Positions 2,191 to 12,330 of a DNA stretch of 12,330 nt are shown piece after piece (the stretch's first letter is position 1; every line of letters starts with the position of its first letter). The stretch comes from a virus: UHGV virus genome UHGV-0317858. One strand, given 5' to 3'. The notes under the pieces are model-generated. The model ran no database searches. It was not told the origin of the DNA and saw nothing but the letters and a program-made list of their open reading frames with translations. Both the position numbers and the translations under genes were made by a program.

Positions 2191-2985
2191 ATGAGCGAGA
2201 AATTAAAGATAGTCTATCGCCCATTACAAGAATTGTCACCGTATGCGCACAACGCCAGGACGCACAGTACTGAGCAGGTGGCACAACTGGTAGAAAGTAT
2301 TAAGCTATTCGGCTGGACTAATCCGGTGCTGATTGACGAAAAGGGCGAAATTATTGCGGGTCACGGTCGTGTTATGGCGGCTGAAATGCTCAAAATGGAT
2401 TCTGTTCCGGTCATTGTTCTGTCTGGCCTGACGGATGAGCAGAAAAAGGCGTACCGCCTGGCAGATAATCGCCTGCCGATGAATGCTGGCTGGGATGAAG
2501 ATCTGTTGCGGATGGAGCTGTCGGACCTAATCAATGCTGATTTTGATGTCTCCCTGACAGGCTTCATCCCGACAGAAATTGATGAACTGTTGACGGATGT
2601 TTTGCCCGGTACAGGAAATGAGGAGGAGCCGTATACGACGAAAATTGATACGCCTGTTTATGAGCCGTCGGGCGGTAAACCGGATATCAGTGAACTGTAC
2701 GACGATACGAAAACTCAGGAGCTGATCAGCCGGATACGTTCGGCGTCCCTTGATCCTGATATTGAGAAATTCCTCCTGTGTGCGGCAGAACGTCACACAG
2801 TGTTTAATTTCAGCAGAATTGCGGACTATTACGCTCATGCCCCCGCTGAAATTCAGTGCCTTTTCGAGGAGTCGGCGCTGGTGATCATTGATTATCAGCA
2901 GGCTATTGAAAATGGATTTGTCCGAATGACGCAGCGCATGGTGGAGATCATGCATGGCGGGGAGGAGGAGGAGGAATATGCGTGA
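2191..2985 (+). CDS. ParB/Srx-like N-terminal domain protein (ParB-like nuclease or DNA-binding fold) with an acidic C-terminal region of unknown function ending in poly-Glu
   Basis: 264 aa. The N-terminal 90 residues (YRPLQELSPYAHNARTHSTEQVAQLVESIKLFGWTNPVLIDEKGEIIAGHGRVMAAEMLKMDSVPVIVL...AYRLADNRL) carry the hallmarks of the ParB N-terminal/sulfiredoxin fold (hydrophobic strand, then G-H-x-R, then AA). The C-terminal region has no motif I recognise. The gene ends ...[11 protein letters not shown] and its stop overlaps the next start. Confidence 0.75.
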   Translation: MSEKLKIVYRPLQELSPYAHNARTHSTEQVAQLVESIKLFGWTNPVLIDEKGEIIAGHGRVMAAEMLKMDSVPVIVLSGLTDEQKKAYRLADNRLPMNAGWDEDLLRMELSDLINADFDVSLTGFIPTEIDELLTDVLPGTGNEEEPYTTKIDTPVYEPSGGKPDISELYDDTKTQELISRIRSASLDPDIEKFLLCAAERHTVFNFSRIADYYAHAPAEIQCLFEESALVIIDYQQAIENGFVRMTQRMVEIMHGGEEEEEYA

Positions 2986-3712
2986 TGATTTTTGCGCCTT
3001 TATTCTGACTCACGGGCGACCGGACAAAGTTCTGACTTACCGGACGTTGCGTCGTGCTGGCTATACCGGGAAAATTTTTATCGTTGTTGATGATGAAGAT
3101 AAGACACGGCATCAGTACATGGCTGAATTTGGTGAACAGGTGCTGGTATTTTCCAAAGCCGATATTGCCAGTCGTTTTGACGAAGCCGATAATTTTGGTG
3201 ATCGCCGCTCAATTTTTTACGCCCGTAATGCCTGTTTCGACCTGGCAAAACTGGTCGGGTGTAAATACTTCATTCAGCTCGATGATGATTATCACGAGTT
3301 CCAGTTTCGGGTGGATCGCAACTATGACCAGGCCTATTTCCCGATAAGGAAACTGGATGCGATCCTTTCTGAAATGCTGGCGTATTACGAATCAATACCC
3401 GCGCTTTCCATCGCTATGTCGCAGGGCGGGGATTTTCTTGGTGACAATGGCGGCCATGCTTCGTGGGTGAAACGCAAGGCAATGAACAGCTTTATCTGTT
3501 CGGTTGATCGACCGTTCTCATTCATGGGGCGCATTAACGAGGATGTGAATACGTACACGAATCTCGGTCGCTGTGGTGAATTGTTTATGACGATCGGTGC
3601 TGTCCAGTTAGGGCAGAAACAGACGCAGAAAAACAGCGGCGGAATGACCGAGCTGTATCTGGATTCCGGAACCTGCCGCCGCGCCCGTTCAATATCCGGA
3701 TGCGCAGGATGA
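2978..3712 (+). CDS. GT-A-fold (family 2-like) glycosyltransferase-like protein, probably C-terminally disrupted at the junction with J-derived DNA
   Basis: From ATG 2978 ([43 protein letters not shown]...[13 protein letters not shown]...) the spacing and composition fit the GT-A signature: N-terminal beta-strand, then hydrophobic-VVDD-x-D at residues 36-41, then a DxD motif (DDD at residues 102-104) about 60 residues later, as in SpsA-type enzymes. The GGAGGAGGAGGAGGAA run just upstream of ATG 2978 serves as the Shine-Dalgarno; the ORF-track start at 2954 lacks one. The last 13 or so codons appear to be J-gene DNA read out of frame. Confidence 0.55.
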
Positions 3713-6639
3713 CGCCGGACAGCACCACAGACCAGCTGCAGAACAAAACGCTCTGGTCGTCATACACCGAAATCATCGATGTGAAACAGTGCTACCCGAA
3801 CACGGCACTGGTCGGCGTACAGGTGGATTCGGAGCAGTTCGGCAGCCAGCAGGTGAGCCGTAATTATCATCTGCGCGGGCGTATTCTGCAGGTGCCGTCG
3901 AACTATAACCCGCAGACTCGGCAATACAGCGGTATCTGGGACGGAACGTTTAAGCCAGCATACAGCAATAACATGGCCTGGTGTCTGTGGGATATGCTGA
4001 CCCATCCACGCTACGGCATGGGGAAACGTCTTGGTGCGGCGGATGTGGACAAATGGGCGCTGTATGTCATCGGCCAGTACTGCGACCAGTCAGTGCCGGA
4101 CGGCTTTGGCGGCACGGAGCCGCGCATCACCTGTAATGCGTACCTGACCACACAGCGCAAGGCGTGGGATGTGCTCAGTGATTTCTGCTCGGCGATGCGC
4201 TGTATGCCGGTATGGAACGGGCAGACGCTGACGTTCGTGCAGGACCGACCGTCGGATAAGGTGTGGACCTATAACCGCAGTAATGTGGTGATGCCGGATG
4301 ATGGCGCGCCGTTCCGCTACAGCTTCAGCGCCCTGAAAGACCGCCATAATGCCGTTGAGGTGAACTGGATTGACCCGAACAACGGCTGGGAGACGGCGAC
4401 AGAGCTTGTTGAAGATACGCAGGCCATTGCCCGTTACGGTCGTAATGTTACGAAGATGGATGCCTTTGGCTGTACCAGCCGGGGGCAGGCACACCGCGCC
4501 GGGCTGTGGCTGATTAAAACGGAGCTGCTGGAGACGCAGACCGTGGATTTCAGCGTCGGCGCAGAAGGGCTTCGCCATGTACCGGGCGATGTTATTGAAA
4601 TCTGCGATGATGACTATGCCGGTATCAGCACCGGTGGTCGTGTGCTGGCGGTGAACAGCCAGACCCGGACGCTGACGCTCGACCGTGAAATCACGCTGCC
4701 ATCCTCCGGTACCACGCTGATAAGCCTGGTTGACGGAAGTGGCAATCCGGTCAGCGTGGAGGTTCAGTCCGTCACCGACGGCGTGAAGGTAAAAGTGAGC
4801 CGTGTTCCTGAGGGTGTTGCTGAATACAGCGTATGGGGGCTGAAGCTGCCGACGCTGCGCCAGCGCCTGTTCCGCTGCGTGAGTATCCGTGAGAACGACG
4901 ACGGCACGTATGCCATCACCGCCGTGCAGCATGTGCCGGAAAAAGAGGCCATCGTGGATAACGGGGCGCACTTTGACGGCGAACAGAGTGGCACGGTGAA
5001 TGGTGTCACGCCGCCAGCGGTGCAGCACCTGACCGCAGAAGTCACTGCAGACAGCGGGGAATATCAGGTGCTGGCGCGATGGGACACACCGAAGGTGGTG
5101 AAGGGCGTGAGCTTTATGCTTCGCCTGACCGTGGCAGCGGACGACGGCAGTGAGCGGCTGGTCAGCACGGCCCGGACGACAGAAACCACATACCGCTTCA
5201 GGCAGCTGGCGCTGGGGAACTACAGGCTGACAGTCCGGGCGGTAAATGCGTGGGGGCAGCAGGGCGATCCGGCATCGGTATCGTTCCGGATTGCCGCACC
5301 TGCAGTGCCGTCGCGGATTGAGCTGACGCCGGGCTATTTTCAGATAACCGCCACGCCGCATCTTGCCGTTTATGACCCGACGGTACAGTTTGAGTTCTGG
5401 TTCTCGGAAAAGCGGATTACCGATATCAGGCAGGTTGAAACCACAGCCCGCTATCTTGGCACGGCGCTGTACTGGATAGCCGCCAGTATCAATATCAAAC
5501 CGGGCCATGATTATTATTTTTACGTTCGCAGTGTGAACACCGTTGGCAAATCGGCATTCGTGGAGGCTGTTGGTCAGCCGAGTGATGATGCATCCGGCTA
5601 TCTGGATTTTTTCAAAGGCGAGATAGGGAAAACCCATCTGGCTCAGGAGCTGTGGACGCAGATTGATAACGGTCAGCTTGCGCCTGACCTGGCTGAAATC
5701 AGGACGTCCATTACGGATGTCAGCAATGAAATCACGCAGACCGTCAATAAGAAACTGGAAGACCAGAGTGCGGCAATTCAGCAGATACAGAAGGTTCAGG
5801 TTGATACAAATAATAACCTGAACAGCATGTGGGCTGTGAAGCTGCAGCAGATGCAGGACGGACGCCTTTATATCGCGGGTATTGGTGCCGGTATTGAGAA
5901 CACCCCTGACGGCATGCAGAGTCAGGTGCTGCTGGCGGCGGACAGGATTGCGATGGTTAATCCTGCGAATGGCAACACAAAACCGATGTTTGTTGGTCAG
6001 GGCGATCAGATATTCATGAACGACGTGTTCCTGAAACGCCTGACGGCCCCCACCATTACCAGCGGTGGAAATCCACCGGCATTTTCCCTGACACCGGACG
6101 GAAAGCTGACTGCTAAAAATGCGGATATCAGTGGCAGTGTGAATGCGAACTCCGGGACGCTCAACAACGTCACGATTAATGAGAACTGTCAGATTAAGGG
6201 GAAACTGTCAGCCAATCAGATTGAAGGCGATATTGTCAAAACAGTGGGTAAGGCTTTCCCGCGGGACTCCCGGGCACCGGAGCGGTGGCCATCAGGGACC
6301 ATTACCGTCAGGATTTATGACGATCAGCCTTTTGACAGGCAAATTGTTATTCCAGCGGTGGCATTCTGCGGCGCTAAACATGAGCGGGAGAATAACGATA
6401 TTTATTCGTCATGCCGCCTGATAGTGAAGAAAAATGGTGCTGAAATTTATAACCGTACCGCGCTGGATAATACGCTGATTTACAGTGGTGTTATTGATAT
6501 GCCAGCTGGTCACGGCCACATGACGCTGGAGTTTTCGGTGTCAGCATGGCTGGTAAATGACTGGTATCCCACAGCAAGTATCAGCGATTTGCTGGTTGTG
6601 GTGATGAAGAAAGCCACCGCAGGCATCAGTATCAGCTGA
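3700..6639 (+). CDS. J: Tail tip attachment / host specificity protein J, N-terminally truncated remnant (C-terminal roughly 980 residues)
   Basis: The translation ([76 protein letters not shown]...) matches lambda gpJ from an internal position as I recall it, including the C-terminal receptor-binding region, which here diverges from lambda. The frame is open only back to a stop at 3577-3579 and no N-terminal J sequence is present. ATG 3700 is an internal Met, so expression as an independent protein is uncertain and the locus may be annotated as a pseudogene. Confidence 0.85.
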
Positions 6640-6654
6640 ATTTTATAACCCATA

Positions 6655-6684
6655 TACGGGCGCCAGAAATGGCGCCTTTTTTAT
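6655..6684 (+). terminator. Rho-independent terminator downstream of J
   Basis: GGCGCCA GAAA TGGCGCC hairpin (7-bp G/C-rich stem, tetraloop) followed immediately by TTTTTTATT. Confidence 0.6.
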
Positions 6685-6706
6685 TGCAGAAAAGCGAGAG
6701 GTAATT

Positions 6707-7306
6707 ATGCGTAAAGTTTGTGCAGCCATTTTGTCCGCAGCCATCTGTCTGGCCGTATCCGGTGCGCCTGCATGGGCGTCTGAGCAGCAGGCCACACTGA
6801 GCGCAGGGTATCTTCATGCCCGTACGAACGCTCCCGGCAGCGAAAATCTGAACGGGATTAACGTGAAATACCGTTATGAGTTTACGGACACGCTGGGGCT
6901 GATTACGTCATTCAGTTATGCCAACGCTGAAGATGAGCAAAAAACGCATTACAGCGATACCCGCTGGCATGAGGATTCCGTGCGTAATCGCTGGTTCAGC
7001 GTGATGGCGGGGCCGTCTGTGCGCGTGAATGAATGGTTCAGCGCGTATGCGATGGCGGGTATGGCTTACAGCCGTGTGTCGACTTTCTCCGGGGATTATA
7101 TCCGCGTAACTGACAACAAGGGGAAAACGCACGATGTGCTGACCGGAAGTGATGACGGTCGCCACAGCAACACGTCTCTGGCGTGGGGAGCTGGCGTGCA
7201 GTTTAACCCGACCGAATCCGTGGCCGTTGACGTCGCTTATGAAGGCTCCGGCAGCGGTGACTGGCGTACCAACAGTTTCATCGTTGGTGTCGGTTATAAA
7301 TTCTGA
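6707..7306 (+). CDS. lomR: Lom outer-membrane beta-barrel protein (Ail/Lom/PagC family)
   Basis: 199 aa with a signal peptide (MRKVCAAILSAAICLAVSGAPAWA then SEQQ), near-identical over most of its length to lambda Lom as I recall it, and ending in the aromatic C-terminus VGVGYKF typical of outer-membrane beta-barrels. Preceded by an RBS (GAGAGG). The gene is intact. Confidence 0.9.
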   Translation: MRKVCAAILSAAICLAVSGAPAWASEQQATLSAGYLHARTNAPGSENLNGINVKYRYEFTDTLGLITSFSYANAEDEQKTHYSDTRWHEDSVRNRWFSVMAGPSVRVNEWFSAYAMAGMAYSRVSTFSGDYIRVTDNKGKTHDVLTGSDDGRHSNTSLAWGAGVQFNPTESVAVDVAYEGSGSGDWRTNSFIVGVGYKF

Positions 7307-7333
7307 TTAGCCAGGTAACACAGTGTTATGACA

Positions 7334-7362
7334 GCCCGCCGGTTCAGGCGGGCTTTTTTGTG
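7334..7362 (+). terminator. Rho-independent terminator downstream of lom
   Basis: AGCCCGCC GGTTCA GGCGGGCT hairpin (8-bp stem) followed by TTTTTTG. Confidence 0.6.
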
Positions 7363-7370
7363 GGGGGAAT

Positions 7371-10300
7371 ATGGCAGTACGGATTTCAGGTGTACTGAAA
7401 GATGGCGCAGGTAAGCCGATACAAAACTGCACCATTCAGCTAAAGGCCAGGCGCAACAGCACCACGGTGGTGGTGAACACAGTGGCCTCAGAAAACCCGG
7501 ATGAAGCCGGGCGTTACACAATGGACGTCGAGTATGGTCAGTACAGCGTCAGTCTGTTGGTGGAGGGATTCCCGCCGTCACACGCCGGGATTATCACCGT
7601 ATATGAGGACTCAAAGCCGGGCACACTGAATGATTTCCTCGGTGCAATGACGGAGGATGATGTCCGGCCAGAGGCACTGCGCCGTTTTGAACTGATGGTG
7701 GAAGAGGTGGCGCGTAACGCGTCCGCAGTGGCACAGAACACGGCAGCCGCGAAGAAGTCAGCCGGCGATGCCGGCACATCTGCCCGTGAGGCGGCAACCC
7801 ATGCGACTGATGCTGCAGGCTCAGCACGCGCAGCCAGCACGTCAGCCGGACAGGCCGCTTCGTCGGCTCAGTCAGCGTCTTCCAGCGCAGGAACGGCATC
7901 AGCAAAGGCCACTGAAGCATCAAAAAGTGCTGCCGCTGCAGAGTCCTCAAAAAGCGCGGCGGCCACCAGTGCCGCTGCGGCAAAAACGTCAGAAACGAAT
8001 GCGGCAGCGTCACAACAATCAGCAGCCACTTCAGCATCCACCGCGACCACGAAAGCGTCAGAAGCTGCCACCTCAGCCCGGGATGCGTCGGCTTCAAAAG
8101 AGGCGGCAAAATCATCAGAAACGAGCGCAGCCTCGAGCGCCAGCAGCGCAGCTTCCTCGGCAACGGCGACAGCAAATTCTGCGAAGGCGGCAAAAACGTC
8201 CGAGACGAACGCCAAGGCTTCTGAAACGGCAGCGGGACAGAGTGCCTCAGCTGCGGCAGGCTCAAAAACAGCGGCTGCGTCGTCTGCCAGTGCCGCGTCA
8301 ACAAGTGCCGGGCAGGCCTCAGCCAGTGCCACCGCCGCCGGAAAATCGGCAGAAAGTGCTGCATCGTCCGCTTCAACAGCCACAACGAAGGCTGGCGAAG
8401 CCGCTGTACAGGCCAGCGCAGCAGCGAGGTCTGCTTCCGCAGCGAAGACATCCGAAACGAATGCGAAAGCGTCGGAAACCCGTGCAGAATCCTCAAAAAC
8501 GGCAGCCGCATCGTCCGCCAGTTCGGCAGCGTCATCGGCATCATCTGCGTCTGCTTCAAAAGATGAGGCGACCAGACAGGCGTCAGCAGCGAAGGGCAGC
8601 GCCACGACGGCATCCACGAAAGCAACAGAGGCGGCAGGCAGTGCGACGGCAGCATCTCAGAGCAAAACTGCTGCTGAATCCGCTGCGACCCGTGCGGAAG
8701 CTGCTGCTGATCGTGCTGAAGAGATTGCCGGTGCAGTTGCGATGGAAGACGCAAGCCTTACAACTAAAGGTGTTGTGAAACTTAGCAGTGCTGTTGATAG
8801 CACCAGTGAATCGCTGGCCGCAACGCCAAAAGCAGTTAAAGCAGCCAATGACAATGCGAATAGCAGGGTGCCATCTAACCGAAAAGTTAACGGAAAAGCA
8901 CTGACTGCGGATATAACATTAACGCCGAAAGATATTGGTACTTTAAATTCAGTAACGATGTCTTTCTCTGGCGGGGCTGGGTGGTTCAAACTGGCTACGG
9001 TTACCATGCCACAAGCGAGTTCCATCGTTTACATCGCATTGATTGGTGGCGCTGGTTACAACGTCGGTTCCCCACATCAGGCAGGCATTTCAGAACTGGT
9101 TCTACGAGCAGGCAATGGAAACCCCAAAGGAATTACCGGGGCTTTGTGGAAGCGTACAGCCGTCGGATTAACGAATTTCGCCTGGATCAACACATCCGGC
9201 GATACATATGATATTTACGTTGAGATTGGCAATTATGCGACTCGTGTAAATATCCATTGGGATTGTACTGCAAATGCGACAGTTTCTATTTATACATCGC
9301 CAACATATTCAGCGAGTAAGCCTTCCAGCGTTACCGATGGTGTTGTTTATACGATGTATAGCACACATCAGAAACCGACGCCGTTAGATATTGGAGCACT
9401 GCCAACAACCGGAGGAACAGTTTCAGGTCCGTTGTCTGTTACAGGTGGATTAACTGGTTCATTGAATGGTAATGCAAGTACAGCCACGAAATTGCAGACG
9501 GCAAGATCTATCGGTGGAGTTGTTTTCGACGGTTCTGCAAATATTAACCTTCCAGGTGTAAACACTACGGGTAATCAGAACACCACTGGTAATGCTGCAA
9601 CTGCTACAAAACTTCAGACTGCAAGAAAAATATCCGGTGTTCCATTTGATGGTTCTACTGATATCACTTTAACCGCCGCGCATGTGGCTGCTTTTGCCAG
9701 AAGAGCAACGGATGCGTATGCCGATGCGGATGGGGGCGTTCCATGGAATGCCGAATCAGGCGCTTACAATGTCACCCGCTCTGGCGACAGCTATATTCTG
9801 GTTAACTTCTATACCGGAGTCGGAAGTTGCCGGACCTTGCAGATGAAGGCGCATTACAGAAATGGTGGTCTGTTCTACCGTTCTTCAAGAGACGGTTATG
9901 GTTTTGAAAGTGGTTGGGCGCAGCTTTACACCTCGGCTCATCCTCCTGCAGAGTTTTATCCAGTCGGTGCACCAATCCCGTGGCCATCAGATACCGTTCC
10001 GTCTGGTTATGCCCTGATGCAGGGGCAGACTTTTGACAAATCTGCCTACCCGAAACTTGCTGCCGCTTATCCGTCAGGCGTGATCCCTGATATGCGTGGC
10101 TGGACGATTAAGGGCAAACCTGCCAGTGGTCGTGCCGTATTGTCTCAGGAACAGGACGGCATTAAATCGCACACCCACAGCGCCAGCGCATCCAGTACGG
10201 ATTTGGGGACGAAAACCACATCGTCGTTTGATTACGGCACTAAATCCACGAATAACACCGGGGCGCATACGCACAGTCTGAGTGGCTCTACGGGGTCTGC

Positions 10301-10661
10301 CGGTGCTCATACTCATGGTAATGGTATTCGTTGGCCAGGAGGCGGCGGTTCTGCGTTAGCATTTTATGATGGCGGTGGGTTCACTTATGTCAAGGATTCA
10401 CAGTATCAAGTAAGCCCGGGGACTTCTTCCAGTAGATCGTATTATCAACGTATTCAGACACAGTCAGCAGGTGCTCATACCCACTCGCTGTCTGGTACTG
10501 CAGCAAGTTCTGGCGCACATGCACATACTGTAGGTATTGGTGCGCATACGCACTCGGTTGCGATTGGCTCACATGGACACACCATCACCGTTAACGCTGC
10601 TGGTAACGCGGAAAACACCGTCAAAAACATCGCATTTAACTATATTGTGAGGCTTGCATAA
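7371..10661 (+). CDS. stfR: Side tail fibre protein (lambda Stf-like N-terminus, Ala/Ser-rich quasi-repeat shaft, His-rich C-terminal receptor-binding domain)
   Basis: 1096 aa. The N-terminus ([49 protein letters not shown]...) matches lambda/Rac Stf. A long low-complexity A/S/T/K/E region follows. The C-terminal part carries a duplicated ATKLQTAR...FDGS motif and multiple H-x-H motifs (GAHTHS). The stop TAA overlaps the tfa start (TAATG). Confidence 0.9.
7700..8760 (+). repeat. Imperfect tandem coding repeats specifying the Ala/Ser-rich fibrous shaft of Stf
   Basis: Recurring peptide units such as [24 protein letters not shown] and [26 protein letters not shown] appear several times. The region is stop-free in several frames on both strands, which produces the spurious ORFs at 7768-8778 (+), 7594-8754 (-) and 7868-8617 (-). 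Confidence 0.6.
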
Positions 10662-11245
10662 TGACATTCAGAATGAGTGAACAACCACGGACCATAAAAA
10701 TTTATAATCTGCTGGCCGGAACTAATGAATTTATTGGTGAAGGTGACGCATATATTCCGCCTCATACAGGTCTGCCTGCAAACAGTACCGATATTGCACC
10801 GCCAGATATTCCGGCAGGCTTCGTGGCTGTTTTCAACAGTGATGAGGCATCGTGGCATCTCGTTGAAGACCATCGTGGTAAAACGGTCTATGACGTGGCT
10901 TCCGGCGACGCGTTATTTATTTCTGAACTCGGCTCATTACCGGAAAATGTCACCTGGTTATCCCCGGAAGGGGAGTTTCAGAAGTGGAACGGTACAGTCT
11001 GGGTGAAGGATACGGAAGCAGAAAAACTGTTCCGGATCCGGGAGGCGGAAGAAACAAAAAACAGCCTGATGCAGGTAGCCAGTGAGCATATAGCGCCGCT
11101 TCAGGATGCTGTAGATCTGGAGATCGCAACGGAAGAAGAGGCGTCGTTGCTGGAAGCCTGGAAGAAGTATCGGGTATTGCTGAACCGTGTTGATACATCA
11201 ACTGCACCTGATATTGAGTGGCCTGCAAATCCTGTCAGGGAGTAA
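10661..11245 (+). CDS. tfaR: Tail fibre assembly protein (Tfa chaperone)
   Basis: 194 aa ([54 protein letters not shown]...[19 protein letters not shown]), near-identical to lambda Tfa as I recall it. The start overlaps the stf stop. Confidence 0.9.
11081..11200 (+). repeat. Direct repeat copy 1 (the 3-prime end of tfa), about 87% identical to 12130-12249
   Basis: Hand alignment of the two 120-nt segments gives about 15 mismatches with no gaps. Both encode [19 protein letters not shown][20 protein letters not shown]. Confidence 0.7.
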
Positions 11246-11258
11246 TCATTGGGATTAT

Positions 11259-11293
11259 GCCGCAGCACGTCGTGCGCAAGAACGTGCTGCGGC
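11259..11293. terminator. Perfect 11-bp inverted repeat hairpin between the convergent tfa and methyltransferase genes; candidate bidirectional terminator
   Basis: GCCGCAGCACG (11259-11269) and CGTGCTGCGGC (11283-11293) are exact reverse complements with a 13-nt loop, and a T-run follows at 11303-11308. The T-run also overlaps the minus-strand gene end, so terminator function is plausible but not certain. Confidence 0.45.
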
Positions 11294-11299
11294 TGGATG

Positions 11300-11968
11300 C
11301 TATTTTTTCCCTGAAGCGGAAAACATTACTACAGTACCTTTAATCTTGGTTTTAACATTCTCGAAATGCTCTGAGAGTATATGTGTTAAGCCTTCTTCGG
11401 AATCTTTTGTGTTTGAAAAGATGCCTTTTTGATTGTAAATGCGCATCAGTTTTTGACCGAAGCTATTGTGCACAACGCCGTCACCAAGAATTGTGGCTCC
11501 GTATAGAGTTCCATCGTCAGTTAAGGCCTGCGCCGCATTGCGTATTACACAGCTTTTTGTAGATATATTTCCAGGCAGGCAGTGAAGAAGGTAAAACATG
11601 GAAATGGAATCAAATTGACCATGTAACGCCGCGGGATAAGGTTCAAAAACATCATGGCTAATTTTATGTTTAATTTTTGATTCCCCAGCCCTTGTAGATG
11701 CCGCGTTCAGGCTAGTTTCGTTCAAATCCATTAAAGATATCAGACTACTCTCAGGTACGTGAGTAAGGTAAAACCCAGTTCCAACACCAATATCCAGATG
11801 GTTGTTACCTAAATGTTCCAGAAAGTGTGGAAGGAGGTGTTCCTTTGTAGGACATCCCCATGCAAGCCGATTTGATACTCCCAAAACCCACCAGTCATAA
11901 AGCTTTAGGGTAAGTGGTGTGTAAATTTTAGCCCCATCATCTGTGTTTTTTTTCATTAATTTCACCAT
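11300..11968 (-). CDS. Class I (Rossmann-fold) SAM-dependent methyltransferase of unknown substrate; AT-rich cargo gene
   Basis: 222 aa with a canonical motif I (HLDIGVGTGFY), an acidic residue closing beta-2 (LISLMDLNE), a motif II-like segment (FDSISMFYLLHCL) and a motif III-like segment (LTDDGTLYGATI). No DPPY/NPPY or other DNA-methyltransferase target-recognition motifs. Visibly AT-rich relative to the neighbouring tail genes, with a weak RBS. Confidence 0.6.
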   Translation of the reverse strand: MVKLMKKNTDDGAKIYTPLTLKLYDWWVLGVSNRLAWGCPTKEHLLPHFLEHLGNNHLDIGVGTGFYLTHVPESSLISLMDLNETSLNAASTRAGESKIKHKISHDVFEPYPAALHGQFDSISMFYLLHCLPGNISTKSCVIRNAAQALTDDGTLYGATILGDGVVHNSFGQKLMRIYNQKGIFSNTKDSEEGLTHILSEHFENVKTKIKGTVVMFSASGKK

Positions 11969-12024
11969 GTTATAGTTTTATTTGTGAATTAAATCAATTA
12001 TGGCGATGAATTACAAGGGGTTAA

Positions 12025-12330
12025 ATGCTGCCGCAGCATAGCGATATTGAAATAGCCTGGTATGCTTCGATACAGCAGGAGCCGAATGGCTGGAAGACCG
12101 TCATCATACAGTTCTACATCCAGGAGTTCAGTGAGTATATTGCGCCACTGCAGGATGCTGTAGATCTGGAAATCGCAACGGAGGAAGAAAGATCGTTGCT
12201 GGAGGCATGGAATAAATATCGGGTATTGCTGAATCGTGTTGATACATCAGTAGCTCTGGGTATGAAGCTGATTGTAACTCATGTTACAGTAACGGTCATT
12301 GCTATCTCGAAGGTGCAAAATGTATATTGA
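12025..12330 (+). pseudogene. Chimeric ORF carrying a Tfa C-terminal domain signature (probable tail fibre assembly gene remnant)
   Basis: 101 aa. The central segment ([38 protein letters not shown]) is a Tfa C-terminal domain, but the N-terminal 35 residues and the last 26 residues ([26 protein letters not shown]) do not resemble Tfa. The stop coincides with the window end, so downstream context cannot be seen. Confidence 0.4.
12130..12249 (+). repeat. Direct repeat copy 2 (tfa 3-prime end homologue inside a chimeric ORF)
   Basis: See copy 1; same orientation, about 1.05 kb downstream. Confidence 0.7.

Follow-up and report, generated by a model that had tools for sequence, protein, structure and literature searches.

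The window analyzed here is a 12,330-nucleotide stretch of a viral genome (UHGV-0317858), in which the side tail fiber gene stf occupies 7371..10661 on the plus strand. The gene is a 1096-aa open reading frame, and its product is identical to an NCBI entry named "prophage tail fiber N-terminal domain-containing protein." Its stop codon is overlapped by the start codon of tfa (10661..11245, plus strand), which encodes a tail fiber assembly chaperone of 194 aa (PF02413, E=5.5e-45). The order J-lom-stf-tfa at the locus is that of lambdoid Stf genes, including those of Ur-lambda, and is annotated likewise in the nearest genome. The trkG-ynaK segment is 99.4% identical to that of the K-12 Rac prophage, which identifies the window as the Rac locus. 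Downstream the two differ, with pinR in K-12 and a methyltransferase gene plus a short tfa-like ORF in the window. A promoter and terminator scan of positions 6600 to 12330 returned background levels, except for terminator-like hairpins ahead of stf.

The host element is a defective Rac-type Escherichia coli prophage. Its gpJ lacks the N terminus and the tail genes upstream of gpJ are absent, so that the element cannot by itself make a virion that bears Stf. An alternative to a working fiber gene is that stf here is a relic with no role for its host, important mainly as a reservoir of fiber modules that infecting lambdoid phages could acquire through recombination. The Rac locus assignment and the truncated tail region favor this explanation, as does the experimental demonstration that Rac stf-tfa recombines with lambda, at about 2e-6 (PMC3945230). 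On the other hand, the 1096 codons of stf and the whole of tfa are unbroken, and the same Stf protein occurs on 28 contigs and in a 90%-identity cluster of 570 members, which argues for some maintenance. We regard the relic explanation as a serious contender, at somewhat less than an even chance; it speaks to the status of stf in situ and does not conflict with the structural and mechanistic account developed below.

Stf begins with a tail-attachment domain (aa 1-134; 7371..7772, plus strand; Pfam PF08400, E=1.4e-71), the first 94 residues of which match the collar chain of Ur-lambda Stf (PDB 9E7M/9MGH, E=2.8e-49). Ur-lambda Stf, an OmpC-binding protein of 774 aa, has the same kind of attachment domain (88% identical over aa 1-113) and a shorter Ala/Ser-rich segment. 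A Phage_fiber_2 motif (aa 462-502; 8754..8876, plus strand; PF03406, E=2e-19), which is also found in Mu tail fiber S (PDB 5YVQ/8JU3, E~2e-8), is followed by a mid-shaft module (aa 497-700; 8859..9470, plus strand) that neither K-12 StfR nor lambda Stf possesses; at the nucleotide level, positions 8858 to 9587 resemble neither K-12 nor lambda. The kin of this module are domains of T2/T6-type gp37, with T-even gp37 at 40 to 45% identity (tblastn), and Felix-O1-like fibers, and the module was found in 637 of 5426 E. coli genomes. Farther along lies a globular domain (aa 772-860; 9684..9950, plus strand) that matches residues 322-410 of PDB 8JU3 (E=8e-20) as well as PF12604 (E=2e-6) and is common to Mu tail fiber S and the gp37_C family. 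Lambda Stf is without the entire stretch from aa 497 to 860, which comprises the T-even-like domain, two shaft repeats, and the Mu-S-like domain.

The closest comparison is K-12 Rac StfR (1120 aa), encoded at the same locus. At the nucleotide level it is about 89% identical over aa 1-496 and 91 to 93% identical over aa 740-974, from aa 1032 to the end, and in tfa. Two cassettes have been replaced, one in the mid-shaft (aa 497-739 of the Stf in the window) and one at the tip (aa 975-1031). The distal part of this lambdoid side tail fiber is assembled from exchangeable modules. GC content also varies along the gene (~60% in the Ala-rich part, 41 to 49% in the mid-shaft, and 51 to 56% in the collar and needle), but we set these differences aside as evidence of module origin because they are confounded by amino acid composition.

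Past the mid-shaft module, Stf carries two 27-residue copies of the motif ATKLQTAR...FDGS, at aa 701-727 (nt 9471-9551) and aa 741-767 (nt 9591-9671). The first-pass annotation had noticed both, with a start coordinate 2 nt off, and had taken them for a local tandem duplication. They do lie head to tail with a 40-aa period and have 20 of 27 residues in common, compared with 13 for the best 27-aa self-match over 100 shuffles of aa 457-1096. We nevertheless consider a recent duplication within stf very improbable. DNA identity between the copies is only 62% (50/81 nt), with 12 of the 20 conserved residues encoded by different codons, and Tandem Repeats Finder reported no repeat at this position, identifying just two trivial 12-nt repeats in stf.

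The copies are, moreover, of distinguishable types. Unit 1 (9471..9590, plus strand; 40 residues) is of an "internal" type and fits a whole consensus of 40-aa period that starts with N and closes with [ST]-x-x-I-x-L-P-G-V-N-x-x-G-N-Q-x-T-x-G, whereas unit 2 (9591..9671, plus strand; 27 residues) fits a "terminal" variant (I-[SN]-G-V ... I-T-L-T). The same unit with its linker occurs in the tail fibers of T6, Prochlorococcus phage P-HM2, and Roseobacter phage CRP-603, and the same arrangement is seen in arrays of at least 10 units. Relative to K-12 StfR, the two copies also fall in different exchange modules: K-12 has a single shaft repeat, of the terminal type, and has copy 2 and what follows it in common with Stf, but not copy 1. 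Together, an internal unit followed by a terminal one, the copies make up a short array of an ancient and widespread 40-aa fiber-shaft repeat.

The repeat family appears to be uncurated and was defined in the present analysis. It matched 5824 representatives of 50%-identity clusters at E<=1e-3, in up to 15 stretches per protein, and its arrays, from a single unit to more than 10, occur in coliphages and as far afield as marine phages of Roseobacter and Prochlorococcus. We found neither a Pfam or NCBIfam model nor a high-resolution structure for it: aa 690-780 had no fiber-family match in Pfam at E<=10 and nothing in NCBIfam at E<=1, and in P0151, a protein with at least 10 units, no Pfam or NCBIfam fiber family fell on the repeat. 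PF03406 was considered as the identity of the repeat and rejected, since it sits at aa 462-502.

Searching PDB with the repeat region (phmmer) gave chance matches only, and a profile of 19 units gave a single marginal but motif-consistent match, to the Dec protein of phage L (PDB 6E3C, E=0.0015). The element common to the two is NA.TA.KL.TAR.I...FDGSAN, which in Dec belongs to a C-terminal spike formed in the trimer only (PMC6449081); the segment lacks order in monomeric Dec and becomes a three-stranded spike on trimerization. Dec differs in that it has a single copy of a longer variant with a 7-aa insertion and is a capsid decoration protein, not a tail fiber, and the spike itself was modeled at low resolution. 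The 40-residue shaft repeat is likewise probably trimeric and would both space out the fiber and supply a conserved joint for the recombination of fiber modules. Breakpoints against K-12, where similarity to stfR picks up again at nt 9588, and against phi458 (about aa 777) adjoin unit 2. A broader proposal, which we put forward tentatively and regard as possible but doubtful, is that ATKLQTAR...FDGS marks a very large, apparently uncurated family in which the terminal unit may be a universal joint for receptor-binding modules and array length may set fiber length.

The remainder of Stf (aa 862-1096) aligns with chain residues 28-242 of the T4 gp37 tip crystal structure (PDB 2XGF; phmmer E=3e-82). 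The T4 tip (D10-D11, residues 811-1026) is alignable end to end, through the collar, the out-and-back needle, and the return strand, at 65.8% identity overall (tblastn) and 68 to 94% in the segments outside the tip. The collar domain (aa 862-930; 9954..10160, plus strand), which is the equivalent of T4 gp37 D10, matches PF07484 (E=6.6e-12; 45.6 bits, cutoff 24) and is 84, 88, and 97% identical to its counterparts in T4, lambda, and K-12, respectively. It is followed by an ascending needle stem (aa 931-982; 10161..10316, plus strand; 77, 92, and 96% identical in the same order) and, beyond the tip, by a descending stem (aa 1036-1079; 10476..10607, plus strand; 68, 86, and 98%) on which PF03335, an H-x-H repeat family, matches in 6 stretches. 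A C-terminal strand going back to the collar (aa 1080-1096; 10608..10658, plus strand) completes the protein and is 94, 100, and 100% identical (16/17, 17/17, and 17/17 residues). A solved short tail fiber, 9CUY, aligns over the collar only (aa 862-936, E=6.6e-8), and beyond the collar there is no homology to the receptor-binding head of the T4 short tail fiber gp12.

Stf contains exactly seven H-x-H motifs (nt 10170-10580, aa 934-1070), in agreement with the earlier count of at least seven. Three start in the ascending stem (aa 934, 966, and 980) and four in the descending stem (aa 1036, 1050, 1059, and 1068). The His content of the protein would predict ~0.44 such motifs, and the highest count that any of 2000 shuffles gave was 4. 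The motifs hold 14 of the 22 histidines in Stf, and all 14 are invariant in 11 relatives with six different tips. They align with T4 H883, H915, H929, H966, H980, H989, and H998, and the spacings (32, 14, x, 14, 9, 9) are the same in both proteins apart from x, which is 56 in Stf and 37 in T4. The proposal that the cluster resembles a T4 metal-binding needle thus holds for the long fiber, to which it is homologous motif for motif. K-12 StfR also has seven motifs, whereas lambda Stf has eight together with an extra SFDYGTKTTG rung, making the lambda needle one layer longer.

In gp37, seven iron atoms lie along the needle and are coordinated by these histidines (PMC6957217). By homology, three Stf chains would form the collar and then intertwine into a needle of six strands, each chain running to the tip and returning, with its seven H-x-H motifs stacked on the trimer axis. 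In each layer, six histidines would surround a single metal ion (iron in T4) in octahedral coordination, stapling the needle together. An AF2 monomer model of aa 690-1096 based on an 11-sequence alignment was unusable (mean pLDDT 30.9, pTM 0.18), a low confidence that is expected for an obligately intertwined trimer and a shallow alignment, and the His geometry is accordingly drawn from homology alone. The H-x-H sites of the T4 short fiber gp12 bind zinc, and the Stf sequence itself specifies no particular metal; the layers might therefore hold zinc or another non-iron metal, or no metal at all. We think this unlikely, given that the closest solved homologue, T4 gp37, has seven iron ions at the aligned positions. 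With the iron-bound gp37 needle as the preferred model, we are highly confident that aa 862-1096 constitute a T4 gp37-type receptor-binding tip carried on a Rac-type prophage fiber of exchangeable modules.

Between H-x-H motifs 3 and 4 lies a hypervariable cassette of 53 aa (aa 983-1035; 10317..10475, plus strand), the presumed receptor-contact segment. It is the only variable part of the collar and needle: T4, lambda, and K-12 StfR match it at 15, 21, and 25% identity, respectively, whereas the flanks are 68 to 100% identical to the same three proteins, and the loop is 19 aa longer than that of T4. Nucleotide similarity is lost over 10292-10463 against K-12 stfR and over 10311-10481 against lambda. 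A 21-nt imperfect direct repeat flanks the cassette, its left copy (10295..10315, plus strand) encoding S-A-G-A-H-T-H and its right copy (10463..10483, plus strand) being 86% identical to the left. We identified at least nine tip alleles on a common collar and needle framework, namely six among close relatives (including the Stf in the window) and those of K-12, lambda, and T4. Of 5426 E. coli genomes, 720 carried the allele in the window and 3730 carried the collar and stem.

These alternative alleles and the drop-out of similarity over the cassette bear out the modular exchange of the fiber tip that the first-pass annotation had proposed, and they show that the domain varies among related prophages. 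Two of its other claims have to be narrowed. The region that it designated as specificity determining (9469-10600) does contain the presumed determinant, but the variable part amounts to only about 160 nt. Similarly, the C terminus was said to diverge from lambda Stf, and this is true of the tip cassette and of the mid-shaft (aa ~497-865), but not of the collar, the needle stems, and the last 17 aa, which are 80 to 90% identical at the DNA level and 86 to 100% identical in protein sequence.

Sequence comparison shows in Stf the variable distal tip between conserved segments that characterizes T4 gp37-type tips. In the T4/lambda receptor-binding protein family, the flanks (gp37 812-931 and 966-1026) are conserved and specificity has been assigned to residues 932-965 (PMC9659904). 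The receptor contact of gp37 was mapped to the tip, where H929/H931 are essential (PMC6957217), and the OmpC-binding Stf of Ur-lambda has been described as gp37-like (PMC12617516). In Stf, the loop from motif 3 to motif 4 would form the extreme distal tip. Judging from sequence, the most likely role of the cassette is to make the reversible first contact with an outer membrane receptor, which would be a porin (OmpC, for example) or the lipopolysaccharide (LPS) core.

In some fiber systems, such as that of the T2-type gp38, a downstream protein is the adhesin or remains on the fiber. Since tfa directly follows stf, as a chaperone gene follows the fiber gene in T4, specificity could in principle reside in a downstream product of the T2/T6 gp38 kind, or in tip-bound Tfa, rather than in the Stf cassette. 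We judge this to be highly unlikely. Tfa is at least 93% identical next to four tip alleles, those of the window, lambda, K-12, and the P0137 type; it is 94% identical to lambda Tfa and K-12 TfaR and 93% identical to the Tfa beside the fourth allele. With identities of 93 to 95% beside four different tips, Tfa does not covary with the variable element. The fiber also ends in a T4-type tip, and in T4 it is gp37 that touches the receptor (PMC6957217). The Stf cassette thus remains the favored site of specificity, and the adjacent Tfa, which probably folds the Stf trimer, appears to recognize the conserved stem rather than the tip. Two features set the arrangement apart from that of T4: the chaperone is a lambda-type Tfa (PF02413) and not gp38, and the tip rides on a lambdoid Stf body and not on the T4 gp37 shaft.

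The end of Stf is a close and already well-understood relative of the T4 long-fiber tip, real but ordinary, and as a discovery it matters little. Homology of the lambdoid Stf C terminus to that of T4 gp37 has been on record for decades, as have the needle with its iron-binding H-x-H motifs and the horizontal shuffling of fiber tips. Of practical use are the cassette boundaries (nt 10317-10475) with S-A-G-A-H-T-H-coding repeats on either side; together with the catalogue of tip alleles on one framework, they offer splice points for host range engineering of lambda- or T4-based particles. The 40-aa shaft repeat would deserve a curated family model, and its trimer a solved structure. If its terminal unit does prove to be a universal joint, it would provide a general and predictable splice point for the engineering of fiber chimeras.

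The window corresponds to the right-hand end of an Escherichia coli lambdoid prophage of the Rac type. Nucleotides 814 to 2444 are 99.4% identical to the trkG-ynaK region of K-12 Rac, and similarity to K-12 stops at 2444. An ORF encoding an Rz-type lysis protein (153 to 458; PF03245, E = 8e-45) lies directly upstream of trkG. The tail genes comprise J (3700 to 6639), lom (6707 to 7306), stf (7371 to 10661, encoding 1,096 amino acids), and tfa (10661 to 11245; PF02413). The 979-residue gpJ is N-terminally truncated, its Pfam FNIII-A_GpJ match beginning at model position 99, and there are no tail genes upstream of J in the window; for these two reasons we regard the prophage as defective, despite which stf and tfa are both intact. 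At 2191 to 3712, a position occupied in K-12 Rac by just the short genes ynaK and ydaY, we detected two intact genes, encoding a 264-amino-acid ParB_N-domain protein and a 252-amino-acid TET-associated glycosyltransferase (PF20691, E = 5.6e-35), the latter from a family linked to phage DNA hypermodification. Downstream of tfa (11300 to 12330), the K-12 pinR invertase is replaced by a class I SAM-dependent methyltransferase gene (11300 to 11968, minus strand) and, at 12025 to 12330, a tfa-like ORF of just 101 amino acids that retains only the C-terminal Caudo_TAP segment (phrog_2341).

Amino acids 862 to 1096 of Stf match the crystallized receptor-binding tip of T4 gp37 (PDB 2XGF, E = 3e-82), and Pfam places here a Collar domain (PF07484) and the 14-amino-acid H-x-H repeat (PF03335), the latter six times. 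There are exactly seven H-x-H motifs (amino acids 934, 966, 980, 1036, 1050, 1059, and 1068; nucleotides 10170 to 10580), against a chance expectation of about 0.44 and a maximum of 4 in 2,000 shuffles. In three-way and then four-way alignments they pair with T4 H883, H915, H929, H966, H980, H989, and H998. The spacings (32, 14, -, 14, 9, 9) are the same in both proteins except between motifs 3 and 4, which are 56 residues apart in the window Stf and 37 in T4 gp37. In T4 gp37, the collar (D10, residues 811 to 881 and 1010 to 1026) carries a needle (D11, residues 882 to 1009) along which seven iron atoms are coordinated by the H-x-H histidines; H929 and H931 are essential, as are many residues of the tip, which contacts LPS and OmpC (PMC6957217). 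All 14 H-x-H histidines are invariant among 11 relatives with six different tips. A monomer structure prediction, made with a monomeric tool, had a mean pLDDT of 30.9. By motif-by-motif homology, the window motifs would be the metal-coordinating layers of a trimeric needle, as the first-pass annotation had correctly proposed. Lambda Stf has eight H-x-H motifs rather than the seven of the window Stf, K-12 StfR, and T4 gp37; besides the additional GAHQHP motif on its descending strand, it has a further SFDYGTKTTG on the ascending one, and its needle is therefore one rung longer. The Ur-lambda Stf binds OmpC and has been described as gp37-like (PMC12617516).

Variation in this region is concentrated in a cassette at the needle tip (amino acids 983 to 1035, nucleotides 10317 to 10475). 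Identities to T4, lambda Stf, and K-12 StfR are 84, 88, and 97% in the collar, 77, 92, and 96% in the ascending stem, 68, 86, and 98% in the descending stem, and 94, 100, and 100% in the last 17 amino acids; in the tip they are 15, 21, and 25%. In nucleotide comparisons, K-12 stfR is similar over 9588 to 10291 and 10464 to 11227, and lambda over 9966 to 10310 and 10482 to 11245, with no similarity in the gaps between. The first-pass annotation took the whole C-terminal third to diverge from lambda Stf and probably to determine specificity. Divergence holds for only about 160 nucleotides, the collar and stems being lambda-like (86 to 92% identity), and the specificity region was accordingly drawn too large. 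An imperfect 21-nucleotide direct repeat (86% identity; 10295 to 10315 and 10463 to 10483), which codes for S-A-G-A-H-T-H, brackets the cassette and could plausibly serve as microhomology for its exchange. Close relatives carry at least five other unrelated tips on the same stalk (P0137, P0068, P0078, P0079, and P0126), and K-12, lambda, and T4 provide three more. Collar and ascending-stem DNA occurs in 3,730 of 5,426 complete E. coli genomes, and the window cassette in only 720. The same arrangement has been published for the "T4- and lambda-based RBP family," in which conserved flanks (gp37 812 to 931 and 966 to 1026) enclose a specificity segment (932 to 965) (PMC9659904).

Tfa is 94% identical to lambda Tfa, 95% to K-12 TfaR, and 93% to the Tfa adjoining the commonest alternative tip. 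Because it does not covary with the tip, these data argue that specificity is carried by the tip cassette and not by Tfa, which we infer recognizes conserved parts of the fiber.

Other parts of Stf are also mosaic. Amino acids 462 to 502 contain a PF03406 motif common to Mu S, residues ~525 to 680 resemble T2/T6-type gp37 and Felix-O1-like fiber domains, and residues 772 to 860 match Mu tail fiber S (8JU3, E = 8e-20) as well as Pfam gp37_C. Successive modules of the C-terminal half occur in 637, 2,505, 3,730, and 720 E. coli genomes, such widely differing prevalence being as expected under independent assortment. In experiments, lambda recombined with Rac stf-tfa at ~2e-6 (PMC3945230). In E. 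coli assemblies, 173 of 773 matches to the mid-shaft module (8859 to 9587) were plasmid borne; these plasmids are presumably phage-plasmids bearing related fibers.

The motif ATKLQTAR...FDGS occurs twice in the shaft, at amino acids 701 to 727 (nucleotides 9471 to 9551) and 741 to 767 (9591 to 9671), and had been read as a tandem duplication. Two copies are indeed present, with 20 of 27 residues identical (best of 100 shuffles, 13), but merely 50 of 81 nucleotides agree, codons differ at 12 of the 20 conserved residues, and Tandem Repeats Finder detected no repeat there. Relative to K-12 StfR, which has one copy only, the two fall into separate exchange modules: amino acids 497 to 739, including copy 1 and the linker, have no counterpart, and stfR similarity restarts at nucleotide 9588, around the first codon of copy 2. 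We therefore rejected local duplication as their origin, the element being an old and widespread repeat. Three related fibers (P0057, P0069, and P0056) have the window-type tip but another upstream domain and a single copy. In phage phi458 (L005 4372 to 8169), the fiber is 96% identical to amino acids 458 to 777, and 100% over 497 to 728; identity spans both copies, and the fiber then switches directly after ...DITLT to an unrelated P2/Mu-like C terminus, beyond which lie a tfa-like gene in inverted orientation, IS1, and a Pin invertase. The terminal shaft repeat has here served as the site of a naturally occurring swap.

The element is ancient and widespread. Using tblastn, we found it in T6/T2-type gp37 and in fibers of Acinetobacter, Aeromonas, Roseobacter, and Prochlorococcus phages, with the linker conserved too (...[36 protein letters not shown]... 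in Roseobacter phage CRP-603, and similarly in Prochlorococcus phage P-HM2). Scanned in full with HMMER, 1.84 billion cluster representatives yielded 5,824 proteins at E <= 1e-3, of which 403 reached E <= 1e-30, with up to 15 matched stretches per protein. The metagenomic protein P0151 (1,243 amino acids), which had no Pfam or NCBIfam match whatever, contains eleven units, of which nine follow one another without a break at a period of exactly 40 amino acids. Alignment of 24 units separated an internal type (...IGGV.FDG..NI.LPGVN..GNQ.T.G) from a terminal type (...I[NS]GV.FDGS..I.LT...) that closes each array; the window Stf has one of each. No Pfam or NCBIfam model matched the repeat, and the family appears to be uncurated. 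A PDB search with the unit profile retrieved the phage L decoration protein Dec alone (6E3C, E = 0.0015), in which the C-terminal segment bears an extended version of the motif, lacks order in monomers, and forms a three-stranded spike once trimerized (PMC6449081).

The exact Stf protein is present in NCBI as "prophage tail fiber N-terminal domain-containing protein"; it occurs on 28 contigs and falls within a 90%-identity cluster of 570 members. Among complete genomes in the collection, the nearest is 98.8% identical across stf-tfa. This kind of object is well known, and the exact sequence is public. The core of the first reading, a metal-binding needle, stands; it erred on how far the protein diverges from lambda, on how the duplication is to be understood, and on how large the specificity region is. 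The one mildly new by-product is the scale of the repeat family, together with its missing curation. We conclude that the two copies form a minimal array of this trimeric shaft repeat, which is also a conserved junction for module exchange.
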